Positions 4,603 to 59,222 of a DNA stretch of 64,000 bases are shown here, piece by piece. The position numbers and the translations under genes are program-made. Under the pieces are notes generated by a model. The model was not told where the DNA came from, did not search any database, and saw nothing but the letters and a program-made list of their open reading frames with translations. Each line of letters starts with the position of its first letter. Position 1 is the stretch's first letter. This DNA comes from an uncultured Chloroflexia bacterium (GTDB lineage: Bacteria; Chloroflexota; Ktedonobacteria; Ktedonobacterales; Ktedonobacteraceae): the NCBI GenBank assembly GCA_963777355.1, contig CAVZQK010000020.1:1-64000 (forward strand). The letters are read 5' to 3'.

Positions 4603-6225
4603 CTATTCGGGCGGTAACATTGCCAGTAAATTTCCTGGCGTTACTACTTCGTACTCGCTGCCTAATTGTGCTATCACCTGCGTTAGTTCTGTGGGACCAA
4701 GCTGCCAGGCTAGCACATAGAGATTGATAAAATAGGGCCGCTTTGCGGGCGTTGCTTGCTTAATCATATGCACGGCCTCAGCGACGCTTTTAGCGGTCCC
4801 CAAATTCTGGAAGATAGGGATGCCCGCCCGATAGATCCAGCTCACCCTGGTCAGGCCGCCGCCGCTTAAGATGCCATGTACGCCAAATTGTGACAGAACA
4901 CGAGCGAACTTACGCTGAAGACCCGGCTCAATCAGAGCTAATCCTGCACCCGTTGTCATCGCACGATAGATCAGAAGAGGATGCCGCCAATAGTTCGAGT
5001 CCAGCACCTGCAATACTTTCAGGTTCATCTGTTGCATTAGCCTTCCGCTATGTTCCAGATAGCCCTCAAGCTGACTGGCGGGCCATTTTGCGGGATAGCA
5101 GTAAGCTATGCCACTGGGGCCAGCGATAAATTCGTCGTTGGGCGAGGCGGTGCGTTGATAGTAATCTAGCAGCTCCGGAGCTGCCTGCGGCATCACTACC
5201 GAAATAGGCCAGCCAAGCGGCAACGAACCACGCTCCGGCTGCCGCCAGATATCTACCATGCGCTCCTGCACATATTGCAGGTTGTCTCCCTCGCTGAAAG
5301 TAAAAGAGAGATAGACCTTTTTCTCTAGCACTGCTACAGCATGAGCAGGGGGAGGAGAAGTAGGCTGAGCAGGTTGAGGTGGCGAGACGGCGCTCCAGAT
5401 TTCGAGATTGGAGAAATAGTCGGTGCAGACAACCGGAATGGCGGCCTTCGAGGTCATCGTCACTCCCGAACCTTCCTGCACAAACCAGCCAAGATGGACG
5501 GCTGAAGAGCGATAGCGGCGCAGAATGCGGCGCATCAAACCATACTCAGACTGCCACCTCTGCGCAGGCTGAGGCAAGAAGCCAAGCGGATTGAGCCAGT
5601 AGATAAATGTTTTCGTCGCCACCAGGAAAGGACGAATTCCAAGTGCATTTTTGGGGTCCATCCCAGCTACCAGACGATTCGTACAGAAGGGCAACAGGTT
5701 TTTATACGCCCAGCGATACGCCTGCAAACGCGTGCGCCAATGATATCTACGCAGGTCTTCATGAACGGTCAAAGAGTAAGGAGCCTGCTGGAGAGACTCG
5801 GCCTGCGCGGGAGAGACAATCACACAGTCAGTCAGTCCCGCCATCATCGTGGCGATATTGACAGAATCAGGTAGGGCCGGATCATAGATAATCAGCCCTT
5901 TCACATGTGAGTTCTCTTGCGTGAGAAGCTCATGCAGAATCTCTTCATCGTGCAGGGCAGAGAGTGTATGAGGGATAGCAGCAAGTGCTTCGGAGAGCAG
6001 GAAAGCATCATTCCTGCGGCTGAGCAGATAGATCCGAGGGCGAGGACGATTGAAGATGCCAGCCAGAGTTGCAATACTCAGTTGCAGCTCATATGGGGCT
6101 GTGCGCACATTATAGACGATCAGGTGCTCAGGTCGCTCAAACGCAGGCAAGAGACGCTCATTCGACCAGTCGAGTTGGAGATCCACCACAGAACTCTTCA
6201 TGCGAAGTCCTTTCTCTGCTAACAT
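4603..6225 (-). CDS. GxGYxYP-family protein (putative glycoside hydrolase-like domain)
   Basis: 540 aa; C-terminal 'GPSGIAYCYPAKWP' matches GxGYxYP motif. Confidence 0.45.
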   Translation of the reverse strand: MLAEKGLRMKSSVVDLQLDWSNERLLPAFERPEHLIVYNVRTAPYELQLSIATLAGIFNRPRPRIYLLSRRNDAFLLSEALAAIPHTLSALHDEEILHELLTQENSHVKGLIIYDPALPDSVNIATMMAGLTDCVIVSPAQAESLQQAPYSLTVHEDLRRYHWRTRLQAYRWAYKNLLPFCTNRLVAGMDPKNALGIRPFLVATKTFIYWLNPLGFLPQPAQRWQSEYGLMRRILRRYRSSAVHLGWFVQEGSGVTMTSKAAIPVVCTDYFSNLEIWSAVSPPQPAQPTSPPPAHAVAVLEKKVYLSFTFSEGDNLQYVQERMVDIWRQPERGSLPLGWPISVVMPQAAPELLDYYQRTASPNDEFIAGPSGIAYCYPAKWPASQLEGYLEHSGRLMQQMNLKVLQVLDSNYWRHPLLIYRAMTTGAGLALIEPGLQRKFARVLSQFGVHGILSGGGLTRVSWIYRAGIPIFQNLGTAKSVAEAVHMIKQATPAKRPYFINLYVLAWQLGPTELTQVIAQLGSEYEVVTPGNLLAMLPPE

Positions 6226-6329
6226 ATTTCATAACATTGAAACATGCTTATTTTACTGAGAGCGTGCCCAATCTCAATTTGTTCTTTTTCTTCTATTTAC
6301 ACTTTCTGTTTTTTGTCTGAATCAACATC

Positions 6330-6760
6330 TCCAATCGTCTTAGTATATCCTCAGCAGGGATATGATTTCTAGGGGGATATCTCTCTGGCTCGGTCATTCT
6401 CGCCTCTGCCATTTCTCGCAAGCAAGATAATGAGGCTTTCTTTGCGGTTCTCTATGATGCCAGACGCCATTTCGGTGTGCCAGAGGTGCTCGTTTCGGGC
6501 AATGGTACCATCTTTACCTCTCACGATACGCGCTGGATGTGTGAGCAGCTTGGAATTGAGAAAAAGGAAATTAAGAAGGGACGACCCTATTAAAATTATA
6601 TAGAAGCGGCATCTGGTTGTACAAAGACGTATAGCTGATTGGTCGTTTGAAAAAGCACAAACCTTGGAAGATTTGCTGGCAGCTCACGATAAATGGATGA
6701 GGGACTACAATTTCCAGCGCCATCTCGCTCATGAGAATCGTGACTGTGGAAGGTTGCTCA
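6330..6760 (+). mobile_element. DDE transposase/integrase remnant (rve core C-terminal part; IS3/IS481-like), disrupted by stops
   Basis: translation gives 'NEAFFAVLYDARRHFGVPEVLVSGNGTIFTSHDTRWMCEQLGIEKKEIKKGRPY*' (DDE 'SDNG'-like region with D->G) then, after stops, 'LEDLLAAHDKWMRDYNFQRHLAHENR' (integrase C-terminal YN..RPH motif); no intact ORF, no obvious terminal inverted repeats. Confidence 0.6.
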
Positions 6761-13526: not shown

Positions 13527-16007
13527 TTACGCCGGTGTCTTATTCGATTTACCAAGATCTCGCTCTACATGGAGCACATCTTTTACACGTTCCAGGCGGG
13601 TAAAAAGTCGCTGGATCTGCTCAAGATCATATACCTCCACGGTTGTTGTCACCATTACCTGCTCACGACCATTGTGAGAATGTGAATTCACTGAGACCAG
13701 ATTAATATTACAGTCTGAGATGACAGTGGCAAGATCGCGAATCAGGCCGGGACGATCCTGTGCGGTAATGACTATAGGAGCAAGGTAGCGCGGCTGACTC
13801 ATGCCTACCCAGTTCACATGAATTAAACGTTCGCGGTCCCGCTCACGAAAACGAGCAATGTTCCGACAGTCCGAGCGATGGACGATCACACCTTTGCCGC
13901 GACTGATAAAACCGACGATCTCATCGCCCGGCAGGGGACAACAACAATTCGCCAGATGGGTCAAGAGTCCACTTACTCCTGCTACTTCCAAATCTGCCGA
14001 TATTGCCTGCTTGAGAGCTGGTGAAGGATGGACTATTTCGGTCTCTTCTTTGCTCTCTTTATGCTCTTTCGGACCTTCGCGCTGCTGCCAGTATTCAAAC
14101 AACTTGACAACTACAGCACGCGGACGCAGGTCGTCGGACCCGATGGCCGCCAGAATATCGGCGAGGTCATCCAGATGATATTCATGGCACAACCAGTTAG
14201 CGGCATCCTCGCTAATGTTCTCGGTGCTATTGCGTGAACCGGCATTCTTCAGCTCACGCTCCAGCCGCTCACGGCCAATCTGCACGTTAATATAGCGCTC
14301 GTGCATCTTCAGATAGCGGCGAATCTTGCTCTTTGCTGCCGCCGTGCGCGTAAAGCTGAGCCAGTCGCGGGTGGGATGGGCGGTACGACTCGTGACGATA
14401 TCAACTACTTCGCCATTTTTCAGCTCGTAGTCCAGAGGAACCATACGCGTGACCAGGCGATCTCCATCGCCACTTCCTACCTGGGAAATAATACGTGCGC
14501 CGGCACAGGCATCCCCAATCTTCGTATGGACGCGGTAGGCAAAATCAACCGGCGTGGAGCCTACGGGGAGATCCTTTACCTCGCCTTTCGGCGTGAAAAC
14601 AAAGATCTGCTCTTGAAAGAGATCATCTCTTACGACCTCAATAAATTCTGTCTCGCTATTGGTCGAGCGCAGCTCACGCTGCCATTCGGTCATCTGGCGC
14701 AACCAGGTAAGCAGCTCTTTGGCAGAGGCAGAGGCGGTATCCCCAACGTCTTTATAGTGCCAGTGCATCGCTACCCCATATTCGGCCAGTTCGTGCATTG
14801 CATGGGTGCGAATCTGTACCTCTACCAGTTGATTGTCCATGCAGAAGATCGTTGTATGGAGCGCCTGATAGCCGTTTGGCTTGGGATTGGCGATGAAATC
14901 TTTGATGCGGCCATCCTTTGGTCGCCAGAGACTATGCACATGACCGAGCGCAATATAACAATCGGAGGTCGTATCAACCAGGATGCGAAAGGCAATTAAA
15001 TCGTGAATCTGACTGATATCTGCGGCGGCTTTTAGCTCTTCAATTGTCGCAAATTCGCCGGTGGTACGCAGAATCTTCTTATAAAAACTATAGAGATGCT
15101 TGACCCGGCCAGAGATCTCCGCTTGCACATCTACCTGGGACATCTCCTGGCGCAGAATACCACAGACGCGCTCGACATAAGAGCGCCATTGCTTCCGCTC
15201 CAACTCGACAATCTCACGCACCCAGGCAAAGCTCTCCGGCTCCAGAATCTGAAATGCCAGATCATCCAGCTCGGATTCCACACGCGACATCCCCAGGCGA
15301 CCAGCCAACGGCGCATAGATCTCACGCGTCTCCAGGGCCATTGTCACCATCTCTTGCTGATCACCCTGATACTGGGGAGCACACATCATACGCACAGCAT
15401 GTAAACGATAGGCCAGCTTGAGCAGCACCACACGCGGATCTTCCGCCATCGCCACAAACATCTTCCGCACCGTCTCAGCCTGCTGGCGGCGCATCGCCTC
15501 CCGAATCCGTGGCTTTTTACTCTCGGCAGCGGAGCCACTCACCTCATCTCGCTCGTCACTGGACTTTTTTATCGCCGTCGTCTGCGAACCCTGAATAGCA
15601 AGTAAGGCTCCATCCGTAATACTCTGTTTTTTGCGCTCTAGAATATTCAGACGCCACATACTACCGACAACACGAGCCGTAGCAGCGCCAAGCACCTGCT
15701 CTACGACCTCTAACGCTAGCAATTCGGCATCTACCGCCTCAAAAACGAGTCCAGCGGCAATACCTATGGCATCAACATGCATCGTCTCGGCGAGAATAAT
15801 AGTGACCGCTAATGCATGATCCAGAGGGGGAAGAAGACGCTGGCCAGGCACGCCATGACACGTCTCTTGAGCCAGGCGATACGCGCGAATGACCTGGTTT
15901 ATCTCACTCTCATCCATGTATTCACGAATCAGAGTAAGAAGACTCTCCATCGCGCCTCCATATTCCTGTGGTACAGTCTGTTGTTCAACAAGCCTATCAT
16001 CAATCAT
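13527..16007 (-). CDS. long RelA/SpoT-homolog (p)ppGpp synthetase with degenerate HD hydrolase motif (HD->FE)
   Basis: HD-domain region 'LVFEAVDAE' instead of 'LLHDVVEDT'; intact synthetase motifs 'RPKDGRIKDF' and 'GYQALHT'; TGS and ACT regions present. Confidence 0.85.
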   Translation of the reverse strand: MIDDRLVEQQTVPQEYGGAMESLLTLIREYMDESEINQVIRAYRLAQETCHGVPGQRLLPPLDHALAVTIILAETMHVDAIGIAAGLVFEAVDAELLALEVVEQVLGAATARVVGSMWRLNILERKKQSITDGALLAIQGSQTTAIKKSSDERDEVSGSAAESKKPRIREAMRRQQAETVRKMFVAMAEDPRVVLLKLAYRLHAVRMMCAPQYQGDQQEMVTMALETREIYAPLAGRLGMSRVESELDDLAFQILEPESFAWVREIVELERKQWRSYVERVCGILRQEMSQVDVQAEISGRVKHLYSFYKKILRTTGEFATIEELKAAADISQIHDLIAFRILVDTTSDCYIALGHVHSLWRPKDGRIKDFIANPKPNGYQALHTTIFCMDNQLVEVQIRTHAMHELAEYGVAMHWHYKDVGDTASASAKELLTWLRQMTEWQRELRSTNSETEFIEVVRDDLFQEQIFVFTPKGEVKDLPVGSTPVDFAYRVHTKIGDACAGARIISQVGSGDGDRLVTRMVPLDYELKNGEVVDIVTSRTAHPTRDWLSFTRTAAAKSKIRRYLKMHERYINVQIGRERLERELKNAGSRNSTENISEDAANWLCHEYHLDDLADILAAIGSDDLRPRAVVVKLFEYWQQREGPKEHKESKEETEIVHPSPALKQAISADLEVAGVSGLLTHLANCCCPLPGDEIVGFISRGKGVIVHRSDCRNIARFRERDRERLIHVNWVGMSQPRYLAPIVITAQDRPGLIRDLATVISDCNINLVSVNSHSHNGREQVMVTTTVEVYDLEQIQRLFTRLERVKDVLHVERDLGKSNKTPA

Positions 16008-16453: not shown

Positions 16454-18928
16454 TTACTTTGTGAGGGCCCGTTCTACACTTACCACATGCTTCACCTGTT
16501 TCAGGCGACGGAGAAGACGCTCAAGCTGATCCAGCACGCTATCGTGGCTATCAATCTCTAGCGTTGCAGTGATGACTGCCTTTTGCAGCGATGTATTTGT
16601 TGTAGAGGTAACCGAGGTCATGTTAATGCCCGCGTCCGCGACTATCGCGGCTATGTCCCGCAACAGGCCAGAGCGATCATGGGCAACAATGTTGATTGGA
16701 ATCAGATATGACTCAGGATCAATCTGTCGCCAATGCATCTCTACCAGCGCGTTCGGTACATCGCGGTAACGCCGCAGGTTGCGGCAATCGTTCCGATGAA
16801 CCAGCATCCCTTTGCCAGGATGAATCAAGCCAGTAATTGTATCACCAGGGATAGGACAACAACATTGAGCCAGCTTGACATGGAGAGGACTGGCTGCGGC
16901 TTCCTCCTCAGGCTGTTCGTCCAGATCCATAACGTCAGCAGGCCCAGCAGGCAAGGCCGTTTGAGCGCTCACGGCTGGAAGCACATACGGCAATAAGCAC
17001 TCCAGCACGCGCTCAACGGGAAGATCTTCTCTGCCAATCGCAACATAGATATCCTCAAGCGTGGCATAGTTCTTGAGAGGAGTCTCGACATCTGAAAGGC
17101 GTAACTTCAAAATCTCTTCTTCAACGGAAGGAGATATGCCACTGACCACTCCAGAGGTCTTTAAGACCAGATCGAGACGCTCACGGCCAAGCTGAAGATT
17201 AATCTCGCGCTCATACGTTTTCAGGTAGCGCCGAATCTTATTGCGGGCCGCCGCCGTGCGCGTAAAACTTAACCAGTCGCGCGTAGGATGGACCGTCCGA
17301 TTCACCACAATATCGACGATCTCGCCACCCTTTAGTTCGTAATCCAGAGGCACCAGGCGTGTGACCAGGCGTCCACTATCATCCATGTTGGTGATGATGC
17401 GTGCCCCTGCACAATGGTCGCCGATATCGGTATGAATGCGATAGGCCATATCCAATGGAGTAGAGCCGCGTGGCAGATCTTTTACCTCCCCTTTAGGGGT
17501 AAAGACAAAAATCTGCTCTTGAAAGATATCGCCCTTGACCGCCTCTACAAACTCATCGGCTCCCTGGGGCAGTTCCCGCTGCCACTCGCGCAACTGCTCG
17601 ATCCAGGTCACCATTTCATGATAAGAGAGACGCCAGCTACTGGGCATACCCTCATTTTGCGCATCTGAGAGCTTCTCCGCCTGGCCCATGCGATCCTTTA
17701 GATACCAATAACTTGCAATTCCGTAGTCGGCGGTGCGCTGCATATCATAGGTGCGGATCTGAATCTCTGCCAGCCTGTTCTCCAGACAGAAGACGGTAGT
17801 ATGGAGAGACTGGTAGCCATTCAGTTTGGGAGTCGCGATAAAATCCTTGATGCGCCCATCCTTTGGACGCCATAAAGCGTGGATATGGCCAAGCGCAAGA
17901 TAGCATTCGTCATCAGAATCTACCAGAATACGAAAAGAGACCAGATCATGAATCTGACTCAGCTCGTCGCTGTTCTGCTCTTCTATTTTACGGTTAATAC
18001 TCGCCAGATGCTTCTGCCAGGCGACTACCTGGGCATGGATGCCGGCACGTTCCATCTCTTTGCGCAAGGCCCGGCAGACCTTTTCGATATATCCCTGACG
18101 GCGCTTCACTTCTTCTTCAACAGTACGGGCCAGGCGGGTAAATTTTTCTGGTTCAAGATAGCGCAGGGCCAGATCCTCAAGATCCGCCTGCACATTTGCC
18201 ATGCCCAGGCGGCGGGCCAGGGGAGCATAGATCTCGCTTGTCTCACGCGCCTTGTTCTGCTGTTGGGCAGAAGACATCGCGGAGAGGGTGCGCATATTAT
18301 GGAGCCGATCCGCCAGCTTTAAGACAACAACACGTGGATCTTCGGCCATTGCCAGCAGCATCTTACGCACTGTCTCCGTCAGAATGCGGCGCTTATCAAC
18401 AATAGAGGGGGGCGGTGAAATCTCAGCAGGCATCTCTTTATGTGCAATATCAGTAGGGGCGGGCTGAGGTCTTCCTGCCAGGGCATCGAATTTTGTGACA
18501 CCATCCACTATCGTCGCTACAGCAGCACCAAAAGCACTCTGAATATCCTCCAGAGAACAACTGGTATCCTCGACGACATCATGCAAAAGTGCGGAGACGA
18601 TCCCATCTGCATCAATACGCATATCTGCGAGGAGAAAGGCTACTTCGAGAGGATGTTGAATATAGGGCTCTCCTGAATTGCGCACAGCCCCCTGATGGGC
18701 TTTATTCGCCAGCTCATAGGCCCGACGAATCTTCTCCTGGTCGTCAGAGGTCAGGTACAGTCCCGTCTCTTGCAGTAGCTCTTTGAGCGTGAGCTTTGAA
18801 GGAGCCAGGGTTGCCCCTGAATAGGTACTTTCTGTACCTAATGATGCCTGAAACCTATTTGAGATATTATTGACGTTCATAGTCATAACACGTCCCTTGC
18901 GCTGCCTGGCATACCGTTTGTTCTGCAT
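16454..18928 (-). CDS. rel: bifunctional (p)ppGpp synthetase/hydrolase Rel/SpoT
   Basis: canonical 'HPLEVAFLLADMRIDADGIVSALLHDVVEDT' HD motif, 'RPKDGRIKDF', 'GYQSLHT', TGS and ACT domains; ~45-aa N-terminal extension so true start may be internal. Confidence 0.85.
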   Translation of the reverse strand: MQNKRYARQRKGRVMTMNVNNISNRFQASLGTESTYSGATLAPSKLTLKELLQETGLYLTSDDQEKIRRAYELANKAHQGAVRNSGEPYIQHPLEVAFLLADMRIDADGIVSALLHDVVEDTSCSLEDIQSAFGAAVATIVDGVTKFDALAGRPQPAPTDIAHKEMPAEISPPPSIVDKRRILTETVRKMLLAMAEDPRVVVLKLADRLHNMRTLSAMSSAQQQNKARETSEIYAPLARRLGMANVQADLEDLALRYLEPEKFTRLARTVEEEVKRRQGYIEKVCRALRKEMERAGIHAQVVAWQKHLASINRKIEEQNSDELSQIHDLVSFRILVDSDDECYLALGHIHALWRPKDGRIKDFIATPKLNGYQSLHTTVFCLENRLAEIQIRTYDMQRTADYGIASYWYLKDRMGQAEKLSDAQNEGMPSSWRLSYHEMVTWIEQLREWQRELPQGADEFVEAVKGDIFQEQIFVFTPKGEVKDLPRGSTPLDMAYRIHTDIGDHCAGARIITNMDDSGRLVTRLVPLDYELKGGEIVDIVVNRTVHPTRDWLSFTRTAAARNKIRRYLKTYEREINLQLGRERLDLVLKTSGVVSGISPSVEEEILKLRLSDVETPLKNYATLEDIYVAIGREDLPVERVLECLLPYVLPAVSAQTALPAGPADVMDLDEQPEEEAAASPLHVKLAQCCCPIPGDTITGLIHPGKGMLVHRNDCRNLRRYRDVPNALVEMHWRQIDPESYLIPINIVAHDRSGLLRDIAAIVADAGINMTSVTSTTNTSLQKAVITATLEIDSHDSVLDQLERLLRRLKQVKHVVSVERALTK

Positions 18929-26619: not shown

Positions 26620-26699
26620 TGTTTTGACGAAGCTCGCATCTCATCGTTCCCTATTACCAGCTAACACCGACTCCAACACATTGCCAGGGGCAAAAGGGT

Positions 26700-26833
26700 T
26701 CGCCCCACGCCTTCTTGCCTCTCCGACCAACCCCTTGTAGGGCAGATCGGCTTGCCCGTCTCCTGTTCGCCCCACGTCTTCTTGCCTCTCCGACCAACCC
26801 CCTGTAGGGCAGATCGGCTTGCCCGTCTCCTGT
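26700..26833. repeat. 67-bp tandem direct repeat x2 containing hairpin core GTAGGGCAGATCGGCTTGCCCGTCTCCTG (REP/MITE-like unit)
   Basis: two consecutive near-identical 67-bp units read directly. Confidence 0.8.
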
Positions 26834-27060
26834 TCACCGAGCGCTGCTCTCGCCCCACAACGGAAACGCGAAAGATATCTTTTGCCTCTCTTTCCCTCCT
26901 CACCCGAAAGAAAAGGGAGGGAGGGAGACCATTCATCTTTTAATTCATCCCTCTCCACTTCGCCCAGCGCTCCTCTCGCTTTTCAAAAAAGGGTCCAGGT
27001 AAGAGGGGGCGAGAGCAGCGCTCGGTGAACAGGAGACGGCCTAGCCGATCTACCCTACGG
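26822..27060. repeat. nested palindromic element: 26-bp inverted repeat TGTTCACCGAGCGCTGCTCTCGCCCC (26822-26847 / 27004-27033) flanking an internal GGGAGGGAGGGA hairpin, followed by a partial inverted copy of the REP-like core (27037-27060)
   Basis: read directly; lies in the 950-bp intergenic region between GH2 start and DAHP synthase. Confidence 0.7.
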
Positions 27061-39961: not shown

Positions 39962-41102
39962 ATGAATATTCTTTTTTCTTCATCTGACTCTGATGAAACT
40001 GAACCACGCTTGCCTAGTGTCTTGCTAAATGAACACGATCCCACTGAAAAAGTTCCGCTGGTAGAACTTACTCAGAGAGACCCCGATCTGCCAGAGGATA
40101 ATTTTGCTTCGGCGGCTCATTTCCAGGCCGCCTTATCACCAGATATATCTACTATGCCAACATTACCAGAAATCATTCCAGATATTTCTATGCAGCCAAC
40201 ATTGGCAGGTGCCTATCCGGATATTTCTACGCTACCAACATCGGCAGGTGCCTATCCAAATCTTCCAGCGAAACTCTCTGCACCAGTTATATCAACCATG
40301 TTCAGTGGCGCACCACCCCCGCCTCAACCACTATCCGAAGGTCCATTTGAGTGGTATAAGCACCAGGACCCAGGTAAAAGACTGTGGCTTGGCGGTGGTG
40401 CAATAGCGCTCTTATTAACCATCATTGGCTATCTTTTTTTGCTAGTAGCCCTTAATCACGTTCCTGCCCCGACTATCGTCACACCCTATGCAACTCCAGC
40501 TATAACATCAATAAAACATCTAACATCTACACCAACTAGCCCTTTTATTGGACTTATTCCTGTTACTCCTACACAAGGACCAGCGAACACCTCAATACCC
40601 ACGCAGATCACAACACCATCGGCCAATCCTACCCAACCACCCTCTAATCCTACTCAACCACCTACTCATCCTACTCCAACCGCCCTCTGATCCTACCCAA
40701 CCACCTTCTGATCCTACCCAACCACCTTCTGAGCCTACCCAACCGCCTACTCACTCTACTCATCCGAAACCACCTGAGCCTACCCAACCACCCGACCTAC
40801 CCAGCCACCTGAGCCTACTCAGCCGCCCGCAAACCGACACCTACACCGATACCTACGCCTATTCCGACACCTACACCGGTCACAGGCATTAATGGTAATC
40901 CCTGGGGCTATGATTTTAATCCCGGAATGTACATTACCCATCCGCCTCCGGCATTTTGTTCTTACTTTTCCTGCACAAGAGACTTCTATTTCGGGCATGG
41001 CTACGTTGTGGAATGTACCGATAGCAAATTTAGCCTCTGGGGCGGTTCAAGATTTGCCTGCTTCTGGGATGGAGGAGTTGTGACTCCCCTCTATTCACAT
41101 TA
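39962..41102 (+). CDS. hypothetical single-pass membrane protein with Pro/Thr-rich 'PTQPPS' repeat linker and conserved Cys-containing C-terminal domain; two frameshifts inside the repeat (~40685, ~40795)
   Basis: three consecutive frames encode N-terminal+TM, (PTQPPS)n repeats, then 'NGNPWGYDFNPGMYITHPPPAFCSYFSCTRDFYFGHGYVVECTDSKFSLWGGSRFACFWDGG'. Confidence 0.5.
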
Positions 41103-53785: not shown

Positions 53786-56476
53786 CTAAATACTCCGTTG
53801 CACCCAGACCTTGAAAATGGGTGCAGCGATGCGATAGCAGTTCCCACTACTCTCCACAAGATCACGCCTTTGGAGACGTTGCAAGGCACGGCGCATCGAG
53901 AGATCTGCCAGGCTTGATTGCGCCTGGATAGCGGCACCGTTGGCTGTATCCAGAACCAGCAGACTACGCAAACAGGCGCGTTGCTCTTCATCAGTCCGCT
54001 CCCAGAGATCGCGGAAATAGTTATCCTCCCATTTCTGAAACATCTCTTCAACCGCGTTAGTAATATCTGCCTCTTCCGCCTGCTCACGCATAGCTGTGTT
54101 TAGTCGCGTCACAATGATCGAGCAGACCGCCTGAATAAGAAAAGGATGACCACCCGTCTCTCGAATAATAGACGCTACAATCTGCTCAGAGAAGATAAGC
54201 TCTCCTGGGAAATTGGCAACAGGATGTGTAATCAAATGCCTGGCTTCCCCTGGCTGCAAAAAGCTGACTTTGAGCGTCTCCACATTGACAAAATAACCCG
54301 ACCAGTTGGCCCCCATCTCGCCCACTGATTTGACACCGCTGAAGAGCAGCGCAATGCGAGGCCGATTCTGAATCGTGCTACGCAACCAATCCAACAAAAG
54401 CACCAGATCGATATGGCCTTTATGTCCCGCCTCTTCCAGTTTCTCAAATTCATCAAATGTCAGCAGCAGGACACGCCCTTCCTTCTCCAACAATTGCTCA
54501 ATATCTTTCAACCAGCGCCCAAAACGATGATAGGCTACAGCCTCATTCTGCCGCTGATCCTCTCGCAACTGCTCATATTCCAATTTCTTGAGCAGCATCC
54601 CACGAGCCATGAGGAGATCATAGATTCCTTCAGCAATGGCGGCAAGCAGGGCGGCTGTGCTGGAAGCGATTCCCGTTGATTGTAGATCATAAAAGACGGG
54701 AAGATACTGCGAACCTAGCAGGTCCGGCAGTTGCTTGAGAATACTGCTTTTTCCCATTCTGCGCTCTCCAGAAAGAAAAAAAGTCGGACGGCGCGGACGC
54801 AAAAGCGCCTCACCCAACTGCTGGGCCACGTCTTTGCGCCCGACGAAGAGGGGATCACGCAGCTCAAGGACAAGACCAGGAACATAAGGATTGGTAATCG
54901 AACCAAAATCTTCGTTATCCCGGCTCACATTCTCCTGCTCATGCTTCGCCACTATACGCCAGCGCTGCATCAATTGTTCAAGACGGCGATTTAAACGCGC
55001 CTCCCGAAAGACTGTTGTTGAATAGATTCCCTGGAGATCTGTCAACATGTTTTCCAACGCTTCATAGCGGGCCTGGCGGTTTATACGTGAATAGTAACTG
55101 GCCGCATCCCGGCTGGCGTCTTCTATATGCCGAAACAGACGCGCAGCCTGCGGATTGAACAAGCGTACCTCGTGCGGTAACGTGACCTGGAGACGCTGAT
55201 GAGCATGGCTAATGTCCCGCAGGCCCTCACATAAACACAGATCACCCAGGGCAATCTCAAGCGCAGTCGCTAGCACGGCGATTCGTTGCTGCGGACGCTC
55301 ATGCAGAAGGAAATCAATTTCCCGCAACGCCAGCTCAACATTCTGATTAGCAGCTATCAAGAGGAGAGGACGAACATACGGCAAAGGCAAAAAGACGCAC
55401 TCATCCCAAAAGAGCGCACAATGGCGCAGATTATAAAAAATTCTCTCAGGATGTTTTTGACTGTCCAGGTAGACCTTGAGCATGGATGCTGCATTGAAGG
55501 GGTACAGCAACAGACGGTAATAGTTAGGAATGTAGCTGACCAGAAAGGCCAATCCTACAATCAATGTGTTGATCCAGCCAGCAGAGATTCCAGTCCATAG
55601 GTTGGCTTGCATTAAACCAACATCTCCAACAGACGAGCCAACCGAGAGACCAAAGGCTCCTGCTACGACAACCCCAATACGCGTGCTCGCCTCAATCACC
55701 TCGGTATGACTATTCACACTGCTCTGCACAATTGCGCCTACCAGACGAACAAGCAAAGCCGCAGTAAGACCACCAACGACCAGCCCCGCAATGCTACCAG
55801 TTATATTCGTCGAACTTCGTTGAACTTCCGGTCCACCAATGAGACCTACCAGCAAACCAGACCAATAGCCCCCAAATGTGCCCGTCAATAAACCAACCCC
55901 TATGCCTGTGAGGGTTCCAACTCCAGCCCCAAGCGTCATCCTCCCCAGACCACTCCGTCTTATTGCCTCTATATTATTAAATGTGAGACTTAAAAAACTG
56001 CCAAAAGAGAGACCAAATATCACACCGACAAGCGCATCATTCTGATTATTAATCGCAATTCCACTGGCCAGAGCTAATGCCAGTGCCGCAGCTACTCCAT
56101 ACACAACACTCAAAAGACTCCCAAAAACCCCACCTAGCAGGCAGCTAAGAAACGTTGCCCAGAGGCAATCAAAAGCAAAGAGCAAAACAGCAGGCTCAAA
56201 ACTCAATAGAGTATGAATAGGATAATATGGGCGAAAGGTTGCTGGCAAATAAAGATAGACTACGATACGCAGGAAGAGAGCAAGGGGATAGATAAACAAA
56301 AATAAAGGTATCATCAGACGCAGTGTCAGACGTAAGCGCCCGGCAATTGTCTCTCGTTCTACGTCTCTTTGAAAACTAGCCGGTTGAAAAAAACATCGTA
56401 GCAGCCAGATAGTCGGCTCAACAAACCAGGAATGCCAGAAGTTCTGCCGTAAGTTTATAAAAATAGGTATCCTCAA
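53786..56476 (-). CDS. large polytopic membrane protein with C-terminal Arch_ATPase/AAA P-loop NTPase and winged-helix domain
   Basis: N-terminal ~450 aa with ~10 Gly-zipper TM helices; C-terminal 'FVGRKDVAQQLGEALLRPRRPTFFLSGERRMGKSSIL' Walker A and 'LLLTFDEFE' Walker B; start overlaps upstream gene stop (ATGA). Confidence 0.7.
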   Translation of the reverse strand: MRIPIFINLRQNFWHSWFVEPTIWLLRCFFQPASFQRDVERETIAGRLRLTLRLMIPLFLFIYPLALFLRIVVYLYLPATFRPYYPIHTLLSFEPAVLLFAFDCLWATFLSCLLGGVFGSLLSVVYGVAAALALALASGIAINNQNDALVGVIFGLSFGSFLSLTFNNIEAIRRSGLGRMTLGAGVGTLTGIGVGLLTGTFGGYWSGLLVGLIGGPEVQRSSTNITGSIAGLVVGGLTAALLVRLVGAIVQSSVNSHTEVIEASTRIGVVVAGAFGLSVGSSVGDVGLMQANLWTGISAGWINTLIVGLAFLVSYIPNYYRLLLYPFNAASMLKVYLDSQKHPERIFYNLRHCALFWDECVFLPLPYVRPLLLIAANQNVELALREIDFLLHERPQQRIAVLATALEIALGDLCLCEGLRDISHAHQRLQVTLPHEVRLFNPQAARLFRHIEDASRDAASYYSRINRQARYEALENMLTDLQGIYSTTVFREARLNRRLEQLMQRWRIVAKHEQENVSRDNEDFGSITNPYVPGLVLELRDPLFVGRKDVAQQLGEALLRPRRPTFFLSGERRMGKSSILKQLPDLLGSQYLPVFYDLQSTGIASSTAALLAAIAEGIYDLLMARGMLLKKLEYEQLREDQRQNEAVAYHRFGRWLKDIEQLLEKEGRVLLLTFDEFEKLEEAGHKGHIDLVLLLDWLRSTIQNRPRIALLFSGVKSVGEMGANWSGYFVNVETLKVSFLQPGEARHLITHPVANFPGELIFSEQIVASIIRETGGHPFLIQAVCSIIVTRLNTAMREQAEEADITNAVEEMFQKWEDNYFRDLWERTDEEQRACLRSLLVLDTANGAAIQAQSSLADLSMRRALQRLQRRDLVESSGNCYRIAAPIFKVWVQRSI

Positions 56477-57546
56477 TAGACAACCTCACGATACAGCACT
56501 TCCAGACGCTGCTCAAATTGCTGCCAGAAGTGCTCACTTTCCTGAAGAGGCTCTTCGGTGAGGAGCTTCCCTACCAGTTGCAGACGCAGTGGCGGCCAGC
56601 GACCAGGACTTAACTCCCCATAACGCCAGAGGGCCTCTGTTTCACGCGCTCCAAATCCAGCTTGACTACTCTTCGCAAGAATAAATGCTTCTGCCTCCCG
56701 CTGTTGAAATGGCTCCAGCATAATTTGCTCAAAGATATTAAAAAAGCCGCTCGTCTCCATATCCTTTCCAATTATCGCACTAATTGGCTGTCGGCTAATA
56801 ACAATTAAAACGAGGCCAAAGATTTGCGTCATCGCACGCAGGCCGCGAAAAAAGTCGAGCGAAAACTCGCGTCGATTCCCCATACCTTCAAATTCATCAA
56901 TGCACAATACAGGCGTTTCCTGCTTCGCCTTCAGCAGCTTCAGCCCCTTTTCCAGACCTAAAAGACCTGTCGCCGGATTAGCCGGCAGACTCAGCGCCTC
57001 CAGGGCTTCACTGGCAAAACCGGTTACGGTCTGACAACTCGGCATTGTCGCATCCAGATAGCCAATATGGAAACGCCTACCAAACTCATGCTCAGCCATT
57101 AAACGCAGATAACTGGCCAGCCAGGTCTTGCCAATACGGCGCGGACCAATAATCGAGGTCGAGGCATGTCGATAGGTCCGATTGAGCAGGGTCTCCCGCT
57201 CACGCCTGCGTCCATAACATTCTTGAGGAGCCAGCAATGGCTCATTAAAAAAAAATAGCGTTTTCACATGTTGACGCGAATGCTCAACCACAGGCAAGCT
57301 TTCTTCTTTTGACTCTGGCTTTTGCCGTTTCTCCTCAACCAGGCCGAGTTCAGCAATGCTCATACCGTAAAGAATACTGAGTTTTCTCCGAAAATGTCGA
57401 CTGGGAAAGGTTATCCCACTCTCCCAACGACTAACCGTTACGCTTGTTGTGCCAAGCTTCTCCGCAAGTTCTTCTTGCGTCCAGCCCTGGCTTTCTCGTG
57501 CAAGACGCAAATATGCTTTAGGGAAAGCATCATCAGGCTTTCTCAC
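56473..57546 (-). CDS. XRE-family HTH fused to Arch_ATPase/AAA P-loop NTPase
   Basis: N-terminal 'LRLARESQGWTQEELAEKLGTTSVTVSRWESG' HTH_3; 'CYGRRRERETLLNRTYRHASTSIIGPRRIGKTWLASYL' Walker A; 'VLCIDEFE' Walker B. Confidence 0.7.
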   Translation of the reverse strand: MRKPDDAFPKAYLRLARESQGWTQEELAEKLGTTSVTVSRWESGITFPSRHFRRKLSILYGMSIAELGLVEEKRQKPESKEESLPVVEHSRQHVKTLFFFNEPLLAPQECYGRRRERETLLNRTYRHASTSIIGPRRIGKTWLASYLRLMAEHEFGRRFHIGYLDATMPSCQTVTGFASEALEALSLPANPATGLLGLEKGLKLLKAKQETPVLCIDEFEGMGNRREFSLDFFRGLRAMTQIFGLVLIVISRQPISAIIGKDMETSGFFNIFEQIMLEPFQQREAEAFILAKSSQAGFGARETEALWRYGELSPGRWPPLRLQLVGKLLTEEPLQESEHFWQQFEQRLEVLYREVVY

Positions 57547-57847
57547 AAAATAATCCCCCTTTAGAGTCAGTCTGACTTACAACGCTACACAAAAATAAAA
57601 CCTGACTTATCTCTAGCTTCTATCGGCAAATTTGATAAGGAATATATGAAGATGATATTATCATCATTTTATCATCCTGTTTCAATGTTGTATACTTATT
57701 GACGATTTTTCCTCAAAAATGCAAATATAGCCCCACCTTTCCTCCTATCCCACTCTCTTCATTCTTCAGGCAAGCGCTAATGATCTGGCTCTCTTGCACG
57801 GGTGATATACTAGTACCATGACCGTCCTCATTTGAACTGTGAGAATC

Positions 57848-57882
57848 CCGTAGGGCAGATCGGCTTGCCCGTCTCCTGCTCA
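57848..57882. repeat. dispersed copy of REP-like core CCGTAGGGCAGATCGGCTTGCCCGTCTCCTG (also at 26727-26766 and 26794-26833)
   Basis: 31/32 nt identity to the 26.7-kb copies; intergenic. Confidence 0.8.
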
Positions 57883-57998
57883 CTTATCACGCTCTCGCCG
57901 GATGTTGTCTCTCCTACAAAGGAAGGTGGTCACGGTACTAGAAAAGATATTTCGTACAAGGATTGTGTAGCAGCAATACGAAAAGATGGAGTATTTGG

Positions 57999-58773
57999 AT
58001 GACAGAATACCAGTATATCCTCGTCGAACGTGCTGAAAATGTTGGCATCGTGACGCTCAATCGCCCTAAAGAACTTAATGCTTTGAGTATGGCGCTGATA
58101 AAAGAGCTGGCCGACGCGCTGGAGGATTTTGATCGCGATGATGCGGTCCATTGTATTATTATCACGGGTTCAGGTGAAAAGGCGTTTGCCGCGGGAGCGG
58201 ATATCAAGGAGATGTCGGGAAAACTCCGATAGAGATGTTTATGGGCGACGGCGAGGCCTGGGGACGTATCCGCCGCCTCCATACACCCCTGATTGCCGCT
58301 GTGAATGGTTACGCTTTGGGCGGCGGCTGTGAACTCGCTCTGCATTGCGATATGATTGTGGCCTCAGAAAACGCTCGCTTTGGCCAGCCTGAAATACTCA
58401 TCGGCATAATTCCGGGCGCTGGTGGTACCCAAAGACTTGCCCGCGTCCTCGGTAAATATCGCACAATGGAGATGGTCCTCACAGGCGCACAGGTCACAGC
58501 CCAGGAACTCGCAAGCCTGGGACTCGTCAACCGCGTCGTCCCCAAAGGCGAACACCTGCACGAAGCCCTGAAACTTGCGCAAACAGTAGCGCCCAGGCCC
58601 CCCTCGCCGCCCGCATGGCCAAAGAGGCTGTCCTCGCCGCCTTTGAAACCTCCCTCGAAGAGGGACTGGAGGCCGAGCGCAAAAACTTCTTCCTGCTCTT
58701 CTCTACCGAAGATATGCGCGAAGGGATGCGAGCCTTTATCGAAAAACGCAAACCCGACTTCAAAGGCAAATAA
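57999..58773 (+). CDS. enoyl-CoA hydratase/isomerase (crotonase) with two frameshifts (~58225, ~58590)
   Basis: '[18 protein letters not shown]', '[50 protein letters not shown]', then '[17 protein letters not shown]' in third frame. Confidence 0.75.
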
Positions 58774-59222
58774 CCCTATCGTTTTCCTTCTCCCTCTTAG
58801 ACCCTTATATCGGTTATTGTCCGTAAAACGCGTATCGTTGTCAATCCCTAGCAAAATTCTTCTCTCTCTTAGGAACTCTCGAAGAATAAAATATCCGAGA
58901 GGCGATGGTGAACTGGCGTTTTGGAAGAAGACAAAGCTCATCTTTCAAAACGCATTTCTCTTGACACAGAATACTCTTTAGGGCTAAAATAAAGCACATT
59001 ACGCAAAGGAGGACTACTCTCATGAATACGACTTTTGCTTGCTTCGACCTTATGGAAGGTGTATTGGCTTAGTCAGAGGCGAAAATGATTCCCAGTTCTC
59101 CGGCTTTGCTCCCGTGAAAAGGCCGGTTTGCCACTGCTCTGTGCATGCTTCTCATGTACCTCTGTCTGCCACTCCTTCCCCTCAGCTTTGCTGTTCCACT
59201 TTTCTTGTGAAAAGGAGTGACT

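Follow-up and report, generated by a model that had tools for sequence, protein, structure and literature searches.

A two-gene membrane ATPase and XRE-HTH ATPase module in a Ktedonobacteraceae genome as a possible transcription-output version of a conserved NTPase switch

The closest published concept to the gene pair described here is the nSTAND2 two-gene counter-invader operon, whose products are predicted to form a hetero-multimer (Kaur, Iyer, Burroughs & Aravind, eLife 2021, Fig. 6C; PMC8195603). One NTPase of that operon has eroded nucleotide-binding motifs and carries a C-terminal TPR plus HEPN or GT4 (PMC8195603). More broadly, effector swapping on a constant NTPase core serves as a signature for predicting conflict systems (PMC7159879, PMC8195603). 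Classical STAND proteins (AP-ATPase, NACHT, MalT, SWACOS) end in sensor repeats of the TPR, WD40 or LRR type. The MalT/AfsR/GutR-type STAND regulators place their HTH either C-terminally (LuxR type) or N-terminally (OmpR/SARP type), with a TPR-like sensor in the same polypeptide. The archaeal Arch_ATPase proteins PAB2304 (2qen) and SSO1545 (2fna), of the 'MNS' STAND-like clade, are ~350 aa long, soluble and stand-alone, and their function is unknown. KAP NTPases combine a P-loop NTPase with transmembrane helices, and some have been implicated in phage defence.

The pair lies in the window, by which we mean the whole 64,000-nucleotide stretch analysed, from an uncultured Chloroflexia bacterium of soil (Ktedonobacteria). 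We refer to the upstream gene as A and the downstream gene as B. Their features, in order of position, are as follows.

53786..56476, minus strand: gene B (896 aa), whose product combines a polytopic membrane domain with a helical domain, a P-loop ATPase and a winged helix
53789..53989, minus strand: C-terminal winged helix of B, residues 830-896 (AF2 model)
53990..54844, minus strand: ATPase of B, residues 545-829, nucleotide-binding domain and helical lid
54443-54457, minus strand: Walker B of B, FDEFE
54746-54769, minus strand: Walker A of B, GERRMGKS
54917..55519, minus strand: family-specific juxtamembrane helical domain of B, residues 320-520
55520..56347, minus strand: glycine-zipper membrane domain of B, residues ~44-319, ~8 helices
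56372..56419, minus strand: conserved cytoplasmic N-terminal motif of B, residues 20-35, EPxIWLLRCFFQPAxF (alignments)
56473..56476, minus strand: 4-nt overlap TTGA, comprising the A stop and the B TTG start
56473-56475, minus strand: stop codon of A, TGA
56473..57546, minus strand: gene A, encoding an XRE-HTH and an ORC/Arch_ATPase-like P-loop ATPase (357 aa, GTG start)
56476..57219, minus strand: ATPase core of A, residues ~110-357, nucleotide-binding domain and helical lid
56887-56898, minus strand: Walker B of A, DEFE
57124-57147, minus strand: Walker A of A, GPRRIGKT
57346..57510, minus strand: XRE-type HTH of A, residues 13-67 (Pfam HTH_3, E 8.5e-12)
57638..57685, minus strand: candidate promoter and operator of the A-B operon (TTGAAA, 17 nt, GATAAT)
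57847..57883, plus strand: REP-like dispersed repeat located between A and ECH, outside the module

Like the nSTAND2 operon, this locus consists of two adjacent STAND-type NTPase genes with variable effector modules on one of them. It differs in the defining features: both A and B retain Walker A and Walker B, the variable module of A is N-terminal (HTH, TM, TIR, kinase or CHAT), and A is partnered by a polytopic membrane protein, B. The Pfam search showed no GT4, HEPN or TPR in either protein, and no repeat domain was seen there or in the AF2 models. The window's A scores 17.9 bits against Pfam nSTAND2 (PF20702), below the cutoff of 24, whereas three related A-type partners exceed it (L030, 27.5; L034, 31.4; L035, 26.6 bits), which makes the A family borderline for nSTAND2. 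In B, an AAA+-like nucleotide-binding domain, a helical lid and a C-terminal winged helix give the Arch_ATPase fold. Its scores of 17.1 bits for Arch_ATPase/ATPase_2 (PF01637; cutoff 33.2) and 28.8 bits for AAA_16 (cutoff 32.6) are below threshold, and several B homologues have precomputed PF01637 or PF13191 matches. Relative to the archaeal Arch_ATPase proteins, B carries an additional ~520 aa of membrane and helical domains. B follows the classical STAND order of nucleotide-binding domain, GxP helical domain and winged helix, but neither protein carries the C-terminal sensor repeats.

Other comparisons also place the pair apart. Compared with Avs, bNACHT, plant NLRs, CED-4/Apaf-1 and paired sensor/helper NLRs, A lacks a winged helix and B is membrane-embedded; Pfam searches gave no NACHT or NB-ARC match for A or B. 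Unlike the MalT/AfsR/GutR regulators, A carries an XRE HTH at its N-terminus, lacks a sensor domain and is paired with a dedicated membrane protein. Whereas KAP proteins insert their TM helices inside the P-loop domain, all TM helices of B are N-terminal (44-319) and its ATPase is contiguous (545-829); Pfam returned no KAP_NTPase match. The sequence-only reading had not recognised this combination, and our searches revealed no characterised housekeeping system to which it is orthologous. We did not find the architecture in the literature searched on nSTAND2, the MNS clade, PF01637/TIR/STAND and glycine zipper/NTPase, nor in a 2025 Thoeris TIR survey or a 2026 STAND survey (Nature).

The N-terminus of A forms four short helices (residues 11-60, AF2 model), and the XRE HTH noted earlier from the letters alone is borne out by an HTH_3 match (PF01381) at residues 13-67 that scores 45.4 bits against a cutoff of 23; PDB sequence matches to this segment are HipB, the 434 repressor and SinR. 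The ATPase core that follows has no winged helix. Its Walker A and Walker B are intact: all 44 homologues share G139, K140 and D217, and nearly all share E218.

B is modelled by AF2 with a pLDDT of 83.4 (both AF2 models are of monomers), and full-length homologues are 43-72% identical. Within its cytoplasmic N-terminal motif, P32 is invariant in alignments, even among relatives at 26-28% identity. The membrane domain is defined by hydropathy segments and six GxxxG-type motifs, and its helices also appear in the AF2 model; the topology is predicted to be N-in/C-in. Its glycine-zipper character had been recognised earlier, at an estimated ~450 aa, and is upheld here at a smaller size (~320 aa, residues ~44-319). 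The domain varies in length among homologues, with mostly Gly among the conserved residues, and has no fold match in the PDB. The conserved domain that follows (residues 320-520) is soluble and entirely helical, and carries the motifs YYRLxLYP, WDExVFLPLPY, ERPQQR and DASRDAAS; R321, D358, L365, P366 and W506 are invariant across phyla, and no Pfam or NCBIfam model covers the domain. The ATPase likewise has intact Walker motifs, with G570, R572, R573, G575, K576, D675 and E676 invariant down to relatives at 26-28% identity, and a GxP-like motif in its lid (GGHPFLIQ). A C-terminal winged helix, also claimed earlier, is supported by the AF2 pattern (H830-842, E844-846, H847-854, H858-870, E874-877, E880-883) and by PAB2304 and SSO1545 structure alignments that cover it.

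NCBIfam, PADLOC and PDB sequence searches gave no useful matches for B. Its N-terminal half (~520 residues) has no counterpart in Pfam, NCBIfam, PADLOC or the PDB, and B-family proteins are for this reason annotated simply as 'AAA family ATPase' or 'hypothetical protein'. The family is sizeable and occurs in Chloroflexota, Desulfobacterota and Acidobacteriota: an exhaustive search of representatives at 50% identity retrieved 2,296 clusters at E <= 1e-30, some of which may match the ATPase alone, and the top 150 matches begin at about profile position 290.

The two ATPases had been described as paralogous. BLASTP finds no similarity between them, so close paralogy falls away, but a distant relationship is recovered by profile-profile comparison (hhalign probability 88.8%, E 2.5e-6, 204 columns). 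The cores are homologous at the profile level, which is compatible with mixed oligomers. Both Walker A sequences (GPRRIGKT and GERRMGKS) and the Walker B DEFE are present as first read, and the Walker A and Walker B motifs are invariant in both families.

At the junction, A and B overlap by 4 nt as previously noted, though through TTGA with a TTG start rather than ATGA (tat-TGA stop of A, TTG-agg start of B). This TTG is the sole canonical in-frame start upstream of the conserved B N-terminus, and GAGG lies 9 nt upstream. Judged from the sequence, the overlap is translational coupling. Related loci show a 4-nt overlap in 18 cases, a 1-nt overlap in 3, no gap in 34 and a 3-nt gap in 7. Upstream of A, an AT-rich palindrome with the core GATGATAATATCATC (57638-57678) overlaps the promoter-like site; upstream of XRE-type A genes, a conserved motif of this AT-rich, palindromic kind coincides in part with the predicted -10 element, and a related motif (ATGTTAAAATATCATTGTTATCA...) occurs in 9 of 17 other loci. 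We infer that the site at 57638..57685 functions as promoter and operator. No RNA family reached the Rfam gathering thresholds in the module or the upstream intergenic region. The REP-like repeat reported earlier does lie in that region, as one of four 27-37 nt copies in the window against 0 expected in a window-wide repeat search, but a role in the module finds no support since it is absent from 119 related loci. An inverted repeat (57810-57834/57917-57941) considered as the REP-like repeat was rejected, being unique in the window and folding no better than shuffled sequence (z -1.26).

Across genomes the two genes strongly co-occur. An A-type ATPase gene is directly upstream of B at 76 of 85 eligible loci and, after redundancy removal at 95% identity, in 65 of 71 clusters. 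The pairing was seen in Ktedonobacteria, Anaerolineae, Caldilineaceae and Desulfobacterales, and a B relative is named from Blastocatellia. The six remaining clusters (L007, L024, L028, the L055 group, L077 and L081) have no upstream A, from which it follows that B can apparently exist alone. Three proteins fuse B to a second ATPase module, an A-like GGRRIGKT ATPase in P0193 and others in P0227 and P0271, and these fusions would link the A and B modules functionally. While the ATPase core of A is constant, its N-terminal module varies between lineages. The 78 partner genes with an A-type ATPase carry XRE-HTH (32), membrane anchor (19), TIR (7), Ser/Thr kinase (6), CHAT+TIR (5) or unknown (9) modules. 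Examples are L030, L034 and L070 for the TIR type, L061 for CHAT+TIR and L035 for the kinase type. This exchange of heads agrees with the earlier suggestion that the pair follows the design logic of defence and signalling NTPases.

The domain anatomy, gene coupling, cross-phylum pairing, head swapping and intact ATPase motifs are direct observations, and the recurrence of the pair together with its head swapping suggests an undescribed signalling or immune-like switch. We propose that A-B represents a conserved NTPase switch, encoded by two genes and anchored in the membrane, in the version whose output is transcription; we consider this model evenly balanced between right and wrong. B would sit in the cytoplasmic membrane through its ~8 glycine-zipper helices, with the helical domain, the STAND/Arch_ATPase-like module and the winged helix facing the cytoplasm. 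A and B would be made from one mRNA, and in fixed proportion because the genes are translationally coupled. B would serve as the constant membrane sensor and scaffold, and A would contribute a related ATPase core with an exchangeable N-terminal output module. A membrane signal, be it damage to the envelope, entry of a phage or a developmental cue, may then cause the ATPase domains of A and B to co-assemble, in a nucleotide-dependent manner, into a putative physical complex, which would gather or release the N-terminal modules of A. With an XRE HTH as the module in this genome, the switch would act by altering DNA binding, probably at the operator palindrome that overlaps the operon's own promoter, a form of autoregulation, and possibly at other sites. 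In other lineages the same core would activate a TIR NADase, CHAT protease or Ser/Thr kinase by induced proximity. Against this model stand the lack in A and B of the TPR, WD40 or LRR sensor domain of classical STAND receptors, the occurrence of a related operator motif at just 9 of the 17 other XRE-type loci, and the six of 71 clusters in which B has no upstream A. The two proteins could also have the opposite roles, A sensing or regulating and the membrane domain of B acting as a pore-forming effector; the 19 loci where A bears a membrane anchor and no enzymatic domain fit this arrangement at least equally well.

At the level of the whole family, we tentatively put forward, with confidence that falls short of even, that A and B represent a large family, undescribed in the sources searched, of membrane-resident, NLR-like two-component immune or cell-death systems in filamentous bacteria from soils and sediments. 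In such a system B would monitor the membrane as sensor or helper and A would deliver a TIR NADase, CHAT protease, kinase or transcriptional output, as a bacterial analogue of paired NLRs.

A rival possibility, which we think rather unlikely, is an anti-phage or programmed-cell-death system in which infection is sensed and the cell is killed or arrested by B-mediated membrane permeabilisation, by the A head or by both, with the XRE-type A mainly repressing a toxic operon until triggered. The A heads include classic abortive-infection effectors (TIR and the caspase-like CHAT), the Ser/Thr kinase heads match PADLOC PD-T4-6 models, and the swapping of effectors on a constant NTPase core is the published conflict signature (PMC7159879, PMC8195603). 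The fold resembles the nucleotide-binding domains of NLR, CED-4 and Avs, the family is enriched in filamentous, multicellular lineages, and some genomes hold several paralogous pairs (L021 and L022 in Dictyobacter kobayashii; L007/L020 and L011/L024 in MAGs). Searches of defence models and gene neighbourhoods point the other way. PADLOC-DB 2.0 gave no system-specific match for B (zero matches for B of the window, L030 and L035; a weak mad8 match alone for L022, E 1.7e-4), and A-type proteins match through generic HTH, TIR or kinase domains, with a weak PDC-S27 hit (E 3.4e-5). No sign of the defence-island association raised by the sequence-only reading was seen among the flanking genes examined, either here or around relatives: the pair is flanked by OtsA, enolase, a hydrolase, XdhC, a CoA-transferase, ECH, DUF4037 and a luciferase-like gene, and the XRE-type loci L001, L002, L039 and L040 have metabolic flanks with partial synteny (XdhC downstream, ECH upstream). 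The 53 ORFs flanking 12 TIR/CHAT/kinase-type loci gave only a few generic PADLOC matches and two integrases, with no clear defence-island content, and a viral contig scan found no relatives. The XRE-type pair is also 55-72% identical across genera, and thus looks vertically inherited rather than subject to rapid turnover.

We regard as improbable a housekeeping envelope-stress or developmental regulator of Ktedonobacteria with no conflict role, in which B, depending on membrane state, would either sequester A as the transcription factor or activate it, following the logic of MalT-type STAND regulators or membrane-tethered transcription factors. Such a regulator would leave the TIR and CHAT+TIR heads on the same core elsewhere unexplained, no link to a known regulon was found, and A lacks a ligand-binding or repeat sensor domain. 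A mobile-element remnant or accessory (a TniB/TnsC/MuB-like transposition ATPase with its regulator) is highly improbable, given that transposase, integrase and terminal repeats are absent from the pair's flanks, ORC and Arch_ATPase structures match better than transposition ATPases, the REP-like repeat is missing from all related loci, housekeeping synteny is kept across genera, and a TniB match was limited to the shared P-loop and scored lower than AAA_22 over that stretch.

Should the pair work as we propose, the STAND/NLR-like NTPase switches, to our knowledge so far almost entirely soluble receptors with repeat sensors, would gain a membrane-embedded branch. The pair would also provide a natural 'domain-swap series' on one conserved core, comprising HTH, membrane anchor, TIR, kinase and CHAT+TIR outputs, a good basis for asking how different outputs are switched on by nucleotide-driven oligomerisation.

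The span 53786-57546, which the sequence-only reading had assigned to two translationally coupled genes, is filled exactly by two minus-strand ORFs.

56473..57546, minus strand: gene A, XRE-HTH and P-loop ATPase, 357 aa, GTG start
53786..56476, minus strand: gene B, membrane region, ATPase and winged helix, 896 aa

The GTG start of A lies 8 nt downstream of an AGGGGG Shine-Dalgarno sequence, and its position is common to homologues, reading VKKP... Because the junction reads ...gtc tat TGA (A stop) with TTG agg... (B start), the 4-nt overlap is TTGA instead of the ATGA first reported; TTG is the sole canonical in-frame start upstream of B's conserved N-terminal motif EPxIWLLRCFFQP. Every Walker motif quoted in that reading is found in the two sequences, and homologue alignments show the Walker A and B residues to be invariant in both families.

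Searched against Pfam, A matches HTH_3 (E 8.5e-12), HTH_31 and AAA_22 above cutoffs, and AAA_16 and nSTAND2 below them; a TniB match (26.0 bits, cutoff 22.4) is limited to the generic P-loop stretch. In its AF2 model (pLDDT 86.8), four helices form the HTH (residues 11-60), and a disordered linker (61-105) separates it from a nucleotide-binding domain of AAA+ type that carries a helical lid; a winged helix is absent. The predicted structure of B (pLDDT 83.4), combined with a hydropathy scan, divides as follows.

Ahead of the helices that begin at residue 44: basic cytoplasmic N-terminus
Residues 44-319: membrane part, about 8 glycine-rich helices with six GxxxG-type motifs
Residues 320-520: soluble all-helical domain
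Residues 521-544: low-confidence linker
Residues 545-829: P-loop domain with lid
Residues 830-896: winged helix

The membrane domain initially estimated at ~450 aa is thus present with a smaller extent, about 320 aa, since model and hydropathy place the helices at 44-319 and the soluble domain at 320-520; the further ~200 aa form a family-specific soluble domain. The first 540 residues of B have no match in PDB, Pfam, NCBIfam or PADLOC. The ATPases of A and B are related at the profile level only (hhalign 88.8%, E 2.5e-6), with no similarity by BLASTP.

Scans of GTDB species genomes and metagenomes, with look-ups of contigs encoding known homologues, yielded 119 related loci. Among those with intact B and enough upstream DNA (85 loci, or 71 clusters at 95% identity), an A-type ATPase gene lies directly upstream of B on the same strand in 76/85 loci, that is 65/71 clusters (92%); six clusters (L007, L024, L028, the L055 group, L077 and L081) have B without upstream A. 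Junctions show a 4-nt overlap in 18 loci, a 1-nt overlap in 3, no gap in 34 and a 3-nt gap in 7. Relatives from Desulfobacterales (Desulfococcaceae among them), Anaerolineae and Caldilineaceae are 26-28% identical when aligned in full and 27-32% within the best tblastn segment. They too have the N-terminal FFQP motif, the glycine-zipper helices, middle domain, ATPase and winged helix, and likewise retain an upstream partner with a 4-nt overlap. An exhaustive B profile search at E <= 1e-30 gave 2,296 representative clusters; nearly all of the best 150 (E < 1e-99) are covered from the final TM helix as far as the C-terminus. Named members, one from Blastocatellia, are annotated merely "hypothetical protein" or "AAA family ATPase". 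Single genomes can carry at least two B paralogues with differing partner types (membrane-anchor A, XRE A, no A), as in Dictyobacter kobayashii NZ_BIFS01000001.1 (L021 and L022, about 34 kb apart) and in two sets each sharing a MAG (L007/L020; L011/L024).

The A family joins a constant ATPase core to a variable N-terminal module. Counted as loci, near-duplicates included, the 78 partner genes carry an XRE-HTH (32), a one- or two-helix membrane anchor (19), TIR (7), a Ser/Thr kinase (6), CHAT+TIR (5) or an unknown module (9). TIR_2 is found too in P0145, a homologue of A. In P0193, B and a second ATPase module with an A-like GGRRIGKT site form a single polypeptide, and P0227 and P0271 each join B to a second ATPase module.

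Upstream of A, a predicted sigma-70-like site (TTGAAA, 17 nt, GATAAT; 57685..57657) overlaps an AT-rich palindrome (57638-57678). A related motif, ATGTTAAAATATCATTGTTATCA followed by more TATCA/GTCAT repeats, precedes XRE-type A in 9/17 other loci, and palindrome and motif together would be compatible with autoregulation by A's HTH. The REP-like repeat noted in this intergenic region is real (4 copies in the window, 0 expected) but unconnected with the module: it occurs in none of the 119 related loci and is therefore genome-specific. This dispersed element, with core GTAGGGCAGATCGGCTTGCCCGTCTCC, occurs as clustered copies in direct and inverted orientation at 26698-27058 (53-nt arms, 94% complementary) and singly at 57847-57883 upstream of A.

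The closest named relatives are from Ktedonobacteraceae and Reticulibacter. Housekeeping genes flank the pair in the window: trehalose-6-phosphate synthase, enolase, a hydrolase, XdhC, two CoA-transferase subunits, enoyl-CoA hydratase, DUF4037 and a luciferase-like oxidoreductase. The related locus L002 likewise has XdhC downstream of the pair, and in Reticulibacter (L001) an enoyl-CoA hydratase with thiolase lies upstream; the synteny is partial, with proteins about 55% identical, and suggests vertical inheritance. The window's enoyl-CoA hydratase gene (57963-58981, plus strand) seems to be broken across two reading frames, as ORFs 57963-58232 and 58235-58981; the second has a Pro/Ser-rich C-terminus that looks out-of-frame. 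The break marks a pseudogene or else comes from indel errors in the assembly. In L002, from one Ktedonobacteria MAG, a divergent AIG1-family GTPase gene (5748-6698, minus strand) adjoins the pair upstream; AIG1/GIMAP GTPases are associated with immunity in eukaryotes.

Elsewhere, the window carries an Rfam HEARO RNA (RF02033; 38271-38542, minus strand; 94.1 bits, gathering score 83, E 6e-18), a class linked to IscB/HNH endonuclease (OMEGA) elements. A tandem 21-nt repeat (40594-40830; units CCTAC(C/T)CAACCACC...) covers the 3' end of ORF 39962-40690, runs on past it and would probably encode a Pro/Thr-rich linker. Two nested perfect palindromes occupy the very start (18-196; 33-nt arms at 18-50/164-196, 32-nt arms at 66-97/121-152), and two ~160-210 nt segments repeated at 14260-14648 and 17172-17554 (71-75% identity, ~2.9 kb apart) look like duplicated gene segments.

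The nearest published concept is the nSTAND2 operon of two adjacent STAND NTPases, for which assembly into a hetero-multimer is predicted (Kaur et al., 2021, PMC8195603). As described there, one nSTAND2 NTPase is inactive and TPR plus HEPN or GT4 make up the C-terminal effectors, whereas A and B have intact Walker motifs, A's modules are N-terminal and the window's A falls below the Pfam nSTAND2 cutoff. Among the rows shown, nSTAND2 examples are gammaproteobacterial, and a text search near them matched no Ktedonobacter or Dictyobacter term (PMC8195603). Arch_ATPase proteins have the same ATPase fold in small, soluble form; in classical STAND/NLR proteins a nucleotide-binding domain, a helical domain and a winged helix follow one another in the same order, but repeat sensors are present; and KAP NTPases, unlike B, have TM helices within the P-loop domain. 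The literature searched held no description of this architecture. The original finding is real and its interpretation, a functionally linked NTPase pair on defence or signalling design logic, is supported; we class A-B with paired or modular STAND-like NTPase systems, its function being a prediction.

Domain anatomy, gene coupling, conserved pairing, module swapping and intact catalytic motifs are established. We propose that B would act as membrane-resident sensor and scaffold and A as carrier of the output, and that the two related ATPase cores may co-assemble in a nucleotide-dependent manner, clustering or releasing A's N-terminal modules. For the window's pair, co-assembly would change XRE-HTH DNA binding and therefore transcriptional output; in other lineages, TIR, CHAT or kinase heads would be switched on by proximity. 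It is also possible that the roles are reversed, A being the regulator and the glycine-zipper domain of B an effector that forms pores, an arrangement favored by A variants with nothing but a membrane anchor. The pair may serve immunity or cell death, or instead stress and development signaling. TIR and CHAT heads, together with the NLR-like fold, speak for a conflict role, whereas synteny with housekeeping genes, the absence of the pair from PADLOC, the lack of any clear sign of a defence island around the window's locus or the related loci examined, and the lack of relatives in the viral contigs scanned call for caution.
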